The notes beneath the pieces are model-generated. The model saw only the letters and a list, made by a program, of their open reading frames with translations, ran no database searches and was not told where the DNA came from. Position numbers and translations under genes: made by a program. A DNA stretch of 64,000 nt from Eledone cirrhosa (Eukaryota), in the NCBI GenBank assembly GCA_964016885.1, contig OZ024741.1, positions 212,660,001-212,724,000 on the forward strand, written 5' to 3'. Below are positions 18,990 to 62,660 of this stretch, one piece after another (positions within the stretch are counted from its first letter, which is position 1; the number at the start of each line of letters is the position of its first letter).

Positions 18990-19510
18990 ATGTATAAATA
19001 TTTCGTATCTCCAAGGAAATACGGTTTTAGGAAGCCGTAGCTATGCAATCACCGGGGGGCTAATGCCTTCTGGTGATGTCCAGCAGGATCATGGGGGACA
19101 ACCGGCTTCCTAAAACCGTATTTCCTTCCTATACGAAATATTTAGATATATTGTATAAAGCTATGCTCGAAGCAAAATTCTATTTCTTTTTTATTATAAG
19201 TTGAGCCAACTTATGCAGCTTCATATGCAAATGAGATTAATCACCTCAATTACACAGACGAGAAATGTATATATTCTCGCCTGTCTTCTAGTCCAGCGGT
19301 GGGAGAGACCGTCCTGACGAAGACCAGTTAAGCCTGAAATGCATAGACGGCTGTCCCCCTTACTTTTGCTGGACATCACCAGAGGACGTTAGCCCCCCCC
19401 CCCTCCCGTGTTTGCATAGCTACGTCTTCCTAAAACCGTATTTCCTTGGCGATACGAAATATGTATACATATTGTATAAAGCTATGCTTGAAGCGAAATC
19501 CTATTTCTTT
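18990..19510 (+). mobile_element. Family RzB (320-bp HHR repeat): inverted partial copy + 1.25 tandem units
   Basis: cttcctaaaaccgta at 19106 and 19426 (period 320); 18990-19104 is an inverted copy; (TA)n on both sides. Confidence 0.85.
19308..19351 (+). ncRNA. Type I HHR (RzB)
   Basis: ccgtc CTGACGA agac cagttaa gcct GAAA tgca TA gacgg. Confidence 0.85.
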
Positions 19511-20826
19511 TATATATATATATATATCGTAGTGATTCTCAGGAGGACGGCCGATTGAACAGGGTTTTCGAGATTATAAATAGGTAGTACCTTAACGACT
19601 ACCATGCTAGTCAATACATCGATCTCCATCGCTCAGCGAATCGTAAAACAATGGACGAAGTTTCTACCTTCACCTGACTTCTATTTTTCTTGTACACACA
19701 CACACACATATATATATATATATATATACACCCTCCTCACTCCAACTCTCACACCTACCCATCCTCGCCCCCCTAACATTCCCCCCACTCACACCTGCAT
19801 TCCACCCCTCCCCACCTCCCGTATACTAACACCCACTAACACGTCTTCACCAAACTACACACACACCAGTACACCACACTCCCTCCATAGAACCACACAC
19901 ACCCTTCTCTTCCCGCTCCACCCACACCCCCGCTCCACACTCACTCATCCCACTAACACCCCTACTAATACACACACACATACGCACACACATCCTCCTC
20001 ACTCCAACTCTCACACCTACCCATCCTCGCCCCCCTACCATTCCACCGACTGCTGCTATGCCCTTCTGACCACCTCCCAGCACCAACAGACCACAGCACT
20101 CCCACTGCTGACCACTTCCTGTTGCGCGCGCACCCCACATCTCTCCTCTTCCGACCACCGCTTCATGGATTACCCACACGCAGAAATTGACTTATAACCA
20201 AATCTCCAAACATCCTTGGAACTTACCAACTTTTCAACCATCCTCTTACGTCATCACCTATATAACTCAGCCACACACACACCCCCAAACATTTTTTTCT
20301 ACACACGCCACCCACACCCACAACACACTTAAACCCCACACACACGTGCTTCCCACCACATATTTACACCCTCAGCCTCCTGATTCCTCTTCCCCCACCC
20401 CCCTATCCACACACGCACAGACACTCTGACCCACAAAAACACCCCCCACACACACCTCTTCCTGAACATGCAACCCCGTTCTTCCCCCAACCCTCATTTT
20501 CACATACACACACACACACACACACACGCACACCTACACACACACACCACCTTCAGCCCTCCCCGCTCGGACACCCCGTCTCCCTCTCCCCACTCCACCC
20601 CTACTCCGCCCACACTCTTCCACCACCTGTTTAAACCCCTTTTAATTTCAGTTTATTTTGATCATGCCTTTATTTTAAAATTTTCTCATTCCTTATATTT
20701 TGATCATGCTTTATTTTTATTTTTTATCTTTATTTGTTAATTTTTTATTCGCACCGTTTCCTTTCGCTATATGTCTCTCCACCACTCCCCTACACTCCTT
20801 TTGAACTCTGTTCCCACACACTTCTC

Positions 20827-20858
20827 ACCTGAGGAAGGGCTTATGCCCGAAACGTCGT
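20827..20858 (+). ncRNA. Minimal type I HHR motif at the end of a C/A-rich pseudo-LTR-like segment
   Basis: ac CTGAGGA a-gggc ttat gccc GAAA cg TC gt. Confidence 0.65.
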
Positions 20859-21089
20859 CCCCCACCTACCCCCCACTTTCCTGAGCGTGAATTTAATAAA
20901 CATTTATTGTACTGCCTCTCTGTTCTGTCCCTGTTCAAATTTTTCATTATATATATATATATATTCAAGGTGAAAGACGAATTCTCATCAATATCTCTCA
21001 CTATTGCATTCTTTTTTTCTATGTCCATATCTGCATTGTCTTGGCCTTATTACACATATTCTAACGTATATATATATATATATATATAT

Positions 21090-21464
21090 TGGTAAAAGGA
21101 AAAGAAAATGCTGACAAATTGTTCCCAGTGAAAAATAGTTTAATTAGGAATAAGTAAAAATCAGTAATAGTATTGGTTAGTATTCAGTTTTGGTTTTAAG
21201 CTTTTACCGGTTACGCATTTCTAATGCTTTTCAACAATAATTTTGAGATAGAGCGCCCGTGATGTTTGCTCTAATCTGATTAGAGCAAACATCACGGGCG
21301 CTCTATCTCAAAATTATTTTTGAAAAGCATTAGAAATGCGCAACCGGTAAAAACTTAAAACCAAAATTGAATACTAACCAATACTATTACTAATTTTTGC
21401 TTATTCCTAATTAAACTATTTTTCACTGGGAAAAATTTGTCACCATTTTCTTTTCCTTTTACCA
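21090..21464. repeat. 375-bp near-perfect palindrome, each arm with a decayed U3-A8 HHR motif
   Basis: Centre at ~21277 (ctctaatc t gattagag); TTGAAAA gcatt aga aatgc GYAA ccgg TA. Confidence 0.85.
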
Positions 21465-21799
21465 TAACTTGTGTGTTACAACTCTATTCTTTTAAATATA
21501 TATATATATATACTCATTAAAAATAACATATTTCAATGGTCCAGTTTCATTATACGATCATGATGCAAGACGTAAGCGATTTCATCCGGTGTTGTTTGCG
21601 GAATTAATTATATAAAATAACCATGGGATTTGCACCTAGAAAGTTTCCCTTCGAGGCACAACTCACTCCCGGCAAGGTTGTTTGTGGAAGACCAGCAGTC
21701 ACCCATACATACCAGTCTCCCTTCTTCACGCTACCGATATCGTCCAAAGGAAAGGCAATGGCCGATACAGTTTGAAAACCAGTGATGTCGCAAATCATT

Positions 21800-21930
21800 T
21801 CTGAGTAAACTGGAGAAACGTGAAATAAAGTGTGTTGCTTAAGGACAAAACGCATCACCCGGTTCGATAATCGAACTAACAACCTTTCAATTGCACGCTA
21901 AATGCTCTAACCACTAAGCAATACGCCAAA
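21800..21930 (-). mobile_element. tRNA-derived SINE, family 2 (CORE-like), decayed
   Basis: acgtgaaataaagtgtgttgcttaaggac...ctctaaccactaagc matches the reverse complement of 59841-59960. Confidence 0.7.
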
Positions 21931-60060: not shown

Positions 60061-60199
60061 TCGATATATATATAAAATAATTCATACACAAAACGCCAGC
60101 AAGAGATGTCAACATGAATGGATCTGTTATTTTTTCTAAAGACATTTTTTTCCAATTCCAACCCACCCGTCTCCTCACTCTATCTTATTTCTCATTCTT

Positions 60200-60235
60200 T
60201 CTTCTGATCAAGGACTAGCGTCCGAAACGTTAAGA
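60200..60235 (+). ncRNA. Minimal HHR motif with G8C
   Basis: tctt CTGATCA a-gga ctagcg tcc GAAA cg TT aaga. Confidence 0.6.
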
Positions 60236-61514
60236 CCCTCTTCTTGCTATTTCAAGCGTTAACCTAATATATCCCTTCCATATACTGTACCGATTGTGTT
60301 GTTATTTCTGTTTACCTTTTACACACACACACACACACACATACACACACACACACACACACACACACAGACACACACACACATATATATATATATATAT
60401 ATATATATAAATATGTGTGTGTGTGTGTGTATAGGAAATCAATAGGAATAGGTATAACACTCGTTCGTTATGAAGTGCGTAAAAGCTCTATATATATTCA
60501 TACACACACACACAATATATATATATACATATATATATATATATATATATATATATATATATATATATATATATATATATATATATATATATATATATAT
60601 ATATGAGAATCTTTGAAGCCTTATCGAAAAATGTTTACTATAGAAAAGTGGTCTGAATTGTAGGGTGCCCTTTGTAGGGGCAAGACTTGTACTATCAGTC
60701 GCTTAACGTCAACGAAACCGGGAAAAACACCTTCCTAATAAAACTCAGAATCAGACACGATATAGACATGTTTTTAGTTGAGGAATATTTGTCTGTTCTT
60801 CTAGCAGATGATGGTAATTAGTACCTAGACCATCACACATTGGTCCGCTGTACCAAACTCACTATACGCACGTGGAAGATTATCTAACGTCATGTTTAAA
60901 TAGGAATAAAATGTTCCACAGCTGTGGATCTTGTAGTAAAATCTAATTTTCTTCACCACTGATTTTATCGATTGGCTTTTTAATGATTCGATTTTTATAT
61001 CCACATCTATGATCTACAACAATGCAAGCAATGCAGTGAAGAATCGATACTGACAAAGATGCCGATAAACATCGGAACAGCAACAACAACATCGTTTCTT
61101 CAATCAATACCACCGCAACGCTAAGGTTAAAATCATCCTGATTACAATGAAACTAATAGTGTATGTGAAAGTGCGTAGCTTGGTGGTTAGGCTGCTAGGC
61201 TCACGTCTGTAAGGCCGTTGGTATGTGGTGTTCTTGAACAAGACACTTTATTTTTCGTTGTTCCAGTCCACTCATCTGGAAAAACTGAAATGTCAGTAAT
61301 CCAGAGCACTAATGAGTTTGCTGTTCTCTTGAACAACATATATAGTGTATAAGCTATATATATATATATATATCCTTCTTCTCACTTTTCGTTGCTTCAC
61401 CATTTTTGTTTGTTTACACTCGTGTCCCCTTTATTTACGTGTCCCAACGACTTTTTTTAGCCGTTGCTCGCACCAACCGGAGGTATATGGACTTTAAAGC
61501 GATGAAATACCAAT

Positions 61515-62130
61515 GATTCCAACCGTGACTAAACCCACTGAAAAGTTTCGTGAAATAGTCTTTTAAGACTATATAGTGCATTTGAAGTTTTCCCCAAATT
61601 GTCGGTTAAGTATTTCTTGTTGATTTTATTTTGAATTAAGATTGTATTGCTTTTTCCCCAACTTACAGAAAGTCTTAGGATAAAGTTTTTCTTCTTGATT
61701 TGTTTTGAATTAAGATTGTATTACTTTTCCCTCATCCTACATTAAACATTTTTTCATCTTGATGGTATAGTCACTTATATGCCTGGATTATTGTTGACAT
61801 TTTGCTTACATTAATTTCTCTATTTTCATTTAGATATTTATACTCGAAATTTTTCTAGAGTGCTACTATTATTTGTGACTAATCCCAGTTTAAAAAAAAA
61901 CTGCGATAATATTGCTTATGCTGAACTCCATATTTTTGTTGAGTTTTTCGGAATGTTTTGACTGTTGTTTCTTGTAAACAGGTTTTCGTCTCATCCCGCC
62001 ATCACTAGCTTGTGTCCACGTGTGTTTTGTTATCTCATTTCTACACGCTGTCGCTTGCCTGCTTTTAATTCCCCTTCGGCATTTTAGCAGTGGTCATTTG
62101 GATAATGTGTTGTGCACTACTGAAGATCAA
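61515..62130 (+). mobile_element. Diverged RzD monomer, permuted within the ribozyme
   Basis: Collinear with the reverse complement of the 40275-41157 unit; the HHR halves lie at opposite ends. Confidence 0.8.
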
Positions 62131-62439
62131 CTTTTTAAAGATATAATATAGACACAAACACATATATATAGTCTAACAAAGTTCTTTCGTTGCACATCTG
62201 CAACATCGTCAGTGGTGCTATTATGTTTCTTCCTGTTGTATTGTATGTCTACGCCATCTTTATCTGTTTATTTATTTATTTATTTATTTATTTATTTTTG
62301 GCTTCTTATCTGCGCATGCGTTTGCGTGTGTGTATAGTGTTTGGTGTGTATAACAATATTTGTTTCGACACACGGTTTCATATCAAAATCTTCGCAAAAC
62401 TATATATATATATATATATATATATATATATATATATAT

Positions 62440-62660
62440 ATGCAAATGAGGCTACTCACCCAATGTATACTAAAGAAAATACTATATATTATCAACCGTT
62501 CAACACATTGGCAGAGAGGTATATAGTCCTGATAAAGGGTAATGGCCCAGAAACATGTTGATTGTTCCTCACAGTCAGTGTTGAACAGACAGGTGACGTC
62601 CGGTAACCGGTACGGTACAGCTTCTATAGTGGCTCGTTTGTTTACAAACGTATCGAACAT
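62440..62660 (+). mobile_element. Diverged RzA relative with HHR at 62523-62565 (G8A)
   Basis: Shares atgcaaat, cgttcaac, ggcaga, gtcagtgttgaaca, aggtgacgt and gtttgtttacaaacg with RzA. Confidence 0.8.

Follow-up and report, generated by a model that had tools for sequence, protein, structure and literature searches.

In a 64,000-nucleotide window of the Eledone cirrhosa assembly GCA_964016885.1 (contig OZ024741.1, positions 212,660,001 to 212,724,000 of the forward strand; all coordinates below count from the first letter of this window), short non-coding repeats with hammerhead ribozymes carry, ahead of the ribozyme, an octamer, ATGCAAAT, and, after a gap of 34–35 nt, the sequence TATATA. 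The repeats are non-LTR retrozymes (LTR, long terminal repeat), here called RzA, RzA2, RzB and RzB2. The module is real and probably functional, and from its sequence we favor, with moderate confidence, the view that the conserved block is a compact internal promoter. A SNAPc-dependent promoter of either small nuclear RNA (snRNA) or H1 type is a tentative version of this view, and a plain RNA polymerase II (Pol II) promoter made of octamer and TATA is a somewhat less likely one; the confidence placed in a compact promoter is that of these two taken together. The remarkable point is the co-location of the module with these elements, not the number of octamers.

The octamer stands at 19225 in RzB, at 45522 in the first unit of the RzA array with six further copies at a period of 466 nt up to 48318, at 51011 in RzB2 and at 62440 in RzA2, so that the module lies ahead of a type I hammerhead at four loci, which represent three lineages (the RzA array, RzA2 and RzB). 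In the first RzA unit, on the forward strand, the octamer (45522–45529) is followed by a 34-nt interval (45530–45563) that offers a candidate proximal sequence element (PSE) slot and is not vertebrate-like in sequence, by the TATATA box (45564–45569), which is also the apex of a predicted RNA hairpin, by a conserved GCAG (45592–45595) and by a type I hammerhead within an extended stem I (45579–45665; core 45610–45640, palindromic loop CTAG, predicted cleavage after 45640). From octamer to TATATA is 42 nt in RzA and 43 nt at the 19225, 51011 and 62440 loci, and TCA(G/C)C lies 16 nt past the octamer start at all four; the positions and mutual spacing of the two boxes given in a preliminary description of this DNA proved exact. 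The same description had set the module at a fixed distance from the ribozyme, which fails in RzB. The octamer precedes the CUGANGA core by 88 nt at 45522, by 89 nt at 19225 and 62440 and by 99 nt at 51011, and the longer form, formerly taken for an odd insertion of ~10 nt, is common among RzB contigs: the extra 10 nt occur in 34 and 26 contigs of sequencing run X3 and in three of run X6, where depth across the short form is almost nil. The 19225 copy, in which 10 nt present in other family members are missing after 19297, is probably a deletion copy, and the extra 10 nt fill a bulge left open in its fold. The constant distances are octamer to TATA and TATA to GCAG, rather than octamer to ribozyme, as a promoter would predict.

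The window holds 11 octamers where 5.8 ± 2.5 are expected, a count that 6 of 100 shuffles equal or exceed; seven come from the single RzA array, and ten lie inside retrozyme elements. A relaxed scan of both strands of the window for the module, with one mismatch allowed per box, returned 10 matches, all in retrozyme elements. The other hammerhead-like cores of the window, 11 in number, all lack a forward octamer within 250 nt upstream, even with one mismatch allowed. At 62440 the octamer adjoins a (TA)n tract, and the two letters preceding it may belong to the microsatellite.

No invariant runs common to the three lineages are longer than the octamer with its two preceding bases (10 nt) and TATATA (6 nt); those in the catalytic core measure 4–5 nt, and the segments flanking the boxes are ~40% identical between RzA and RzB. 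Column shuffles reached both runs in 29 of 20,000 trials (62 of 20,000 with RzB2 added), in an alignment of only three lineages that itself anchors on the motifs and so favors such runs. Seven of the first 13 nt of the octamer-TATA interval, which include TCA(G/C)C, are invariant in the four copies. RNAalifold yields no consensus pairs over the octamer-TATA module, and over the ribozyme it yields 20 pairs, eight of them with two-sided changes, so that sequence is what is conserved in the module, and structure in the ribozyme. Within the RzB family (2303 contigs in X3 and 29 in X6; none in X1 and X5, where a zero can be false with the method used), none of 26 variant rows, 12 of them private changes of the reference copy and 14 polymorphic, falls within the 40 motif positions formed by the octamer, the 13-nt block, TATATA and the ribozyme core (P 0.02). 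This pattern agrees with constraint, but weakly.

The lineages bearing the module are themselves related. A structure-aware scan places type I hammerheads with stems I–III and a palindromic tetraloop at 19314, at 51110 and, seven times over, at 45610 and its repeats; the stem III loop is lineage-specific (CTAG, TGCA, CATG), and the form with a short stem III and palindromic loop is described as cleaving as a dimer (PMC4209133). At the Rfam gathering score no hammerhead is found in the window; at loose thresholds HH9 matches RzA with 18.5 bits (E 0.067, below the gathering score), and RzB2 matches no Rfam hammerhead family even then. The four copies align almost gap-free from octamer through ribozyme with a common extended stem I, 93.7% of whose cells are paired versus 34–56% when the scaffold is slid, in a test on four related sequences with a structure derived from those same sequences. 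RzA and RzB had been described as unrelated families. Segment by segment, RzA compared with RzB and RzB2 does remain mostly within shuffle range (lowest counts 3 and 11 of 300), but the elements are colinear, share one covarying scaffold and are bridged by RzA2, which in a blastn comparison of the window with itself matches RzA at 70% over 165 nt (E 3e-12) and, only across the octamer-TATA block, RzB2 at 74% over 62 nt (E 1e-5) and RzB (E 0.002). Judged by their sequences, they are three lineages of one old superfamily, or share modules, and are colinear relatives rather than cases of independent convergence; the effective sample is therefore three. RzA2 looks mosaic: its ribozyme flanks (compared with 45520–45678) are 70–76% RzA-like, and its octamer-TATA interval (62438–62499 compared with 51009–51070) is identical to RzB at 20–21 of 35 positions and to RzA at 17 of 34, which could reflect module exchange or constraint.

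The alternative that survives best, although unlikely, is that the boxes are RNA-level signals. Two hairpins of a circular RNA, with the octamer in a stem and UAUAUA in a loop, would be read by a Penelope reverse transcriptase or a host protein; UAUAUA would possibly pair with the (TA)n target, and transcription would come from flanking read-through. Each copy does fold a hairpin over the octamer block, and in RzA, RzB and RzB2 a second hairpin has TATATA at its apex (local z −2.4, −0.9, −1.8 and −2.0 for the hairpins). Whole-unit circular folds leave the octamer mostly paired and TATATA mostly unpaired, and reverse transcription by Penelope-like elements (PLEs) begins at an internal RNA stem-loop and favors AT-rich DNA (PMC11167929). 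However, the register and partner of the hairpin vary by lineage without consensus pairs, the octamer strand alone being invariant; the elements, truncated RzA2 excepted, end 30–100 nt upstream of the octamer and not at TATATA; and a perfect POU octamer at promoter-like spacing would have to be a coincidence.

For a compact promoter, the geometry can be set beside that of type 3 promoters, in which the PSE lies ~40–70 bp ahead of the start and the octamer usually at −250 to −170 (PMC9652321), the PSE-TATA spacer ranges from 15 to 19 bp, and H1 packs the type 3 elements into 100 bp and is used by both polymerases (PMC7949045; PMC11340601). The 34–35-nt gap here equals an 18-nt PSE plus a 16–17-nt spacer, within the reported range, and with +1 at TATA+30 the slot would lie at −65 to −45, inside the −70 to −40 zone for a PSE (PMC9652321). 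The octamer, perfect at all four loci, stands at about −73 from the predicted +1, not at −250 to −170. TCA(G/C)C, formerly called PSE-like, is no closer to the vertebrate PSE consensus than background and, taken as a PSE start, would leave a spacer of 8–9 nt versus the 15–19 reported. Over the first 21 nt of the gap, RzA2 is identical to each other copy at 13 positions and RzA to RzB at 7–9, and a host-specific PSE abutting the octamer is possible. A likeness of the octamer region to the predicted Schistosoma japonicum PSE (PMC5460494), drawn by eye, was dropped because the register is wrong and that PSE is only predicted. Thirty nucleotides past the first T of TATATA, the A of the conserved pyrimidine-purine step (GC|AG) in GCAG falls at 45594 in RzA, 62513 in RzA2 and 51084 in RzB2, three of the four copies, and is the predicted start. 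In RzA it lies 47 nt ahead of the cleavage site and inside the range of 45590–45600 in which starts had been expected.

The preliminary description had cautioned that T4 runs inside the unit could terminate RNA polymerase III (Pol III), and runs of T4–T6 do cluster just ahead of the next octamer. In RzA, three T4 runs at 45929–45956 (forward strand), the first after the predicted +1, lie 32–59 nt ahead of the next octamer, and a fourth at 46015 lies inside the octamer-TATA interval; RzB has a T6 ~38 nt ahead of its octamer, with T4–T6 at the place matching RzA, and one RzB insert ends at the T6 run. A transposing transcript would therefore need Pol II or leaky Pol III. These runs bear on a more doubtful alternative, in part a sub-case of the compact promoter with which it overlaps, namely a true U6-like Pol III gene in which octamer, PSE and TATA drive a short ribozyme RNA ending at the T-run and transposition proceeds via rare read-through. 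A TATA box downstream of the PSE selects Pol III in vertebrates (PMC9652321), and RzA is free of T4 for 335 nt past the predicted +1 before three come together, although this depletion is weak (no T4 in 384 of 5000 shuffles, P ~0.08). The end of one RzB insert at the T6 also fits such a gene. Yet the PSE match is only at background level, the T-run of RzB differs between family members (at 19188 in 30% of X3 depth, at 19191 in 56%), and the inserted pieces are whole units, promoter included. Leftover ancestral similarity or chance, with no current function, is very improbable: it can appeal to three lineages only, to an AT-rich background, to a family variant test that is mostly non-significant and to a raw octamer count within the chance range, but the invariant runs are two motifs defined beforehand, and they beat the catalytic core while their neighbors are ~40% identical.

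Several observations beyond the anchoring of the alignment weigh against a promoter. The best matches to the U6/7SK PSE consensus score 11, 11, 10 and 9 of 17 and fall at positions that disagree; background averages 10.1, and the consensus is a vertebrate one that may not be the host's. The 19225 copy has G at TATA+30 because of its deletion, and at the T4–T6 runs Pol III would stop before copying the next promoter. TATATA is very common here (3.6% of positions) and looks like the (TA)n target. Predicted folds of RzA and RzB2 RNA place the octamer in a base-paired region and TATATA within the loop of a hairpin, so that RNA-level roles are possible. In the RzB variant test, the 14 polymorphic rows over all motifs give P 0.13, and the octamer and TATA alone give P 0.28 with all rows and 0.51 with the polymorphic ones. 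Summed RzB contig depth is highest over the octamer block, but depth was rejected as a test of copy number or conservation because it is confounded by the reference copy's own indels.

If the block is a promoter, a POU factor on the octamer would sit directly beside the basal machinery, and a unit of 320–470 bp would need no nucleosome loop. Unit n would start at ~45594, and its RNA would run through hammerhead n, the body, promoter n+1 and hammerhead n+1. Cleavage at both hammerheads would release a 466-nt monomer with the promoter inside and with long complementary ends, which may then be circularized; a Penelope-like reverse transcriptase copying the circle for more than one round would produce tandem inserts in which the order of promoter before ribozyme is restored. 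The solo copies RzB, RzB2 and RzA2 would be dead ends. The earlier proposal that each unit copies the promoter of the next stands insofar as the RzA cleavage-to-cleavage monomer includes the next unit's module, but for Pol III the T-runs intervene.

RzA, RzB, RzB2 and RzA2 are non-LTR retrozymes with Penelope-type insertion anatomy. They have a hammerhead per unit (seven in RzA, one each in RzB and RzB2) and short non-coding tandem units, and occur as monomers and multimers; most of their ends adjoin (TA)n, and within one insert the unit register at one end is offset from that at the other by ~43–63 nt. Penelope-like insertion is described as leaving partial tandems, 5′ copies in inverted orientation, a tail on one side and (TA)n targets (bioRxiv 10.1101/2021.04.23.441226; PMC11167929). 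The RzA array (45375–48701, forward strand) lies between (TA)n tracts and repeats its 466-bp unit head to tail 7.1 times (Tandem Repeats Finder period 466, 99% matches); it is young, with 0–2 differences per unit over 452 nt; its two ends differ by ~63 nt in register, and an inverted 5′ piece of RzA, a Penelope-type inverted end, lies at 45269–45378 on the reverse strand (blastn 100% over 110 nt). The RzA unit also holds ~120 bp of TA-rich sequence (45764–45880) able to form a long, perfect hairpin; this may be a fragment of the microsatellite target that was captured and now travels with the element. RzA is present in six sequencing runs under three organism labels, none of them listed as RNA, and this says nothing about expression.

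The RzB copy (19103–19513, forward strand) spans ~1.3 units with ~95 nt of terminal redundancy and has its octamer at 19225, TATATA at 19268 and hammerhead at 19314–19345; an inverted 5′ piece (18988–19107, reverse strand) ends in (TA)n and differs from the forward end by ~43 nt, in the manner of a tail. Five X3 records run from the 3′ part of the RzB unit (19383–19430) back to the unit start and are thus head-to-tail junctions. RzB2 (50932–51260, forward strand) is a single 329-bp unit with octamer at 51011, TATATA at 51054, predicted +1 at 51084 and hammerhead at 51110–51141 with loop TGCA. RzA2 (62438–62678, forward strand) is an old, 5′-truncated copy with octamer at 62440, TATATA at 62483 and predicted +1 at 62513, and its hammerhead (62529–62559, loop CATG) is degenerate, reading CTGATAA with G8 lost. 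A SINE-like (short interspersed nuclear element) repeat of ~190 bp at 62679–62869, inserted in RzA2 with a target duplication of ~17 bp, has several other copies in the window.

A candidate for the helper class lies in the same window and serves also as an octamer-free control. It is a broken autonomous PLE (9960–12406, forward strand) whose pseudo-LTR (pLTR) has TATAAA 36 nt before a hammerhead at 10077 and no octamer, with pieces of reverse transcriptase and GIY-YIG-like open reading frames at 10259–12388 (GIY-YIG match E 0.006, below the cut-off). An inverted 5′ copy, 98% identical, occupies 5638–7387 on the reverse strand, and solo pLTR-like pieces lie at 14954–15203 and 44317–44536, also on the reverse strand; the pLTRs have TATAAA 35–36 nt before a hammerhead with a 3-bp stem III. 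The retrozymes share with PLE pLTRs a promoter, here predicted, upstream of the hammerhead, tandem and inverted 5′ structure, a tail of 30–40 bp and (TA)n targets (PMC4209133; PMC6765202; bioRxiv 10.1101/2021.04.23.441226). They differ from the pLTRs of the window in having the octamer and a TATA-to-core distance of 46–56 nt rather than 35–36 nt, and no alignment joins the two in the self-comparison.

An snRNA-type promoter in a hammerhead repeat is already known from newt satellite 2 (as cited in PMC2220036; see also PMC6765202); a version with octamer and TATA did not appear in the literature searched. Satellite 2 repeats in tandem every ~330 bp and carries a type I hammerhead together with an snRNA-type promoter inside the unit, and the retrozymes here are alike, their promoter being predicted only. 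The newt promoter has been tested and is a Pol II promoter. The repeats described here differ in their invariant TATATA and in an octamer placed directly against the PSE slot, and they show no vertebrate-type PSE. Satellite 2, treated by Coats, Zhang and Epstein in 1994, reportedly combines an octamer with a vertebrate PSE and is TATA-less; its cellular 5′ ends are said to lie 46–47 nt upstream of cleavage, which would match the 47 nt predicted for RzA.

Sm-alpha repeats of Schistosoma are SINE-like and transcribed by Pol III, whereas the module here is of the upstream type. The Sm-alpha promoter consists of tRNA-type internal boxes. ARAGORN found no tRNA in the window, degenerate A and B boxes not being searched for. 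The logic of propagation would be the same: in Sm-alpha, cleavage leaves a monomer with the promoter at its 3′ end, so that only tandems propagate, and in schistosome hammerhead repeats and PLEs alike an upstream copy drives the downstream one (PMC6765202). In human H1 (RPPH1), which covers ~99 bp, a Staf site separates octamer from PSE (PMC7949045); here the octamer lies ~73 nt before the predicted +1, with no room for Staf and the PSE unmatched.

Metazoan retrozymes are described as non-coding tandem units of a few hundred bp with low GC and a type I hammerhead, for which mobilization by PLEs is proposed (Cervera and de la Pena 2020, PMC7229834; Li et al. 2026, bioRxiv 10.64898/2026.07.22.740005). 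[quoted passage not shown] A term search of the available text of both sources gave no mention of "octamer" or "TATA" and showed no promoter described. The literature searched, which included few subscription papers and no supplements, yielded neither an invertebrate retrozyme with an octamer+TATA promoter nor a mollusc PSE. The 2026 Octopus vulgaris repeat annotation (PMC13282606) has, by term search of the portion available, no mention of hammerhead, ribozyme or retrozyme. Neither the tRNA- and 5S-derived promoters of LTR-type elements (PMC10886601) nor the predicted schistosome U6 promoter (PMC5460494) changes the reading.

Pattern searches for relatives elsewhere used viral and metagenome collections that are mainly microbial, so that blanks say little about animals. 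The octamer+block pattern had no match; the geometry pattern matched 21 loci in viral contigs, none with a hammerhead, and 68 in metagenome contigs, 67 without a hammerhead fold, the one marginal locus being rejected. With a covariance model, the window yielded no additional copy and these 89 loci no match better than E 0.04. Three metagenome contigs (L030, L055 and L083) carry one and the same microsatellite-rich, eukaryote-like sequence, with CTGATGA, a stem II-like hairpin and CGAAC in place of CGAAA, and with the octamer within TA repeats; it was judged to be chance or a decayed ribozyme.

The window as a whole is AT-rich, animal-type sequence crowded with (TA)n microsatellites and repeats. 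Hammerhead-like cores of other families, without the octamer module, lie at 4119, 20829 and 41787 on the forward strand and at 18845, 41334, 43656, 49672 and 62212 on the reverse strand, some of them in inverted or tandem arrangement, and the structure-aware scan gave three weaker candidates at 16590, 49672 and 50287. A 35-bp minisatellite of 67 copies occupies 28848–31193, and remnant open reading frames at 53668–55365 resemble a DNA transposase (DUF4371, E 0.002, below the cut-off).

Animal retrozymes are reported to reach high transcript levels in somatic as well as germline tissue, unusually for retroelements (PMC7229834), and the 80-bp block, with its predicted start base, offers a direct test in an invertebrate. 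If the block is a promoter, an upstream-type promoter, normally lost on retrotransposition, would persist, by tandem or circular copying, in a repeat of very high copy number, a principle whose precedents in newts, schistosomes and PLEs limit the surprise. If it is SNAPc-dependent, it would reveal the host PSE and provide a very small promoter for the expression of guide or circular RNAs in a tool-poor lineage. A bolder and fairly unlikely proposal is that these elements form a superfamily of invertebrate retrozymes with the most compact snRNA-type promoter known, the octamer set against a host-specific PSE and TATA at −30, and with RNA starting 47 nt ahead of the ribozyme cut, as is said of newt satellite 2. 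Were that so, promoter and ribozyme modules would swap between families, as in RzA2 with its RzA-like body and RzB-like promoter block, and capture of SNAPc-type promoters would be a general engine, deeply shared or convergent, of circular RNA expression from animal retrozymes.

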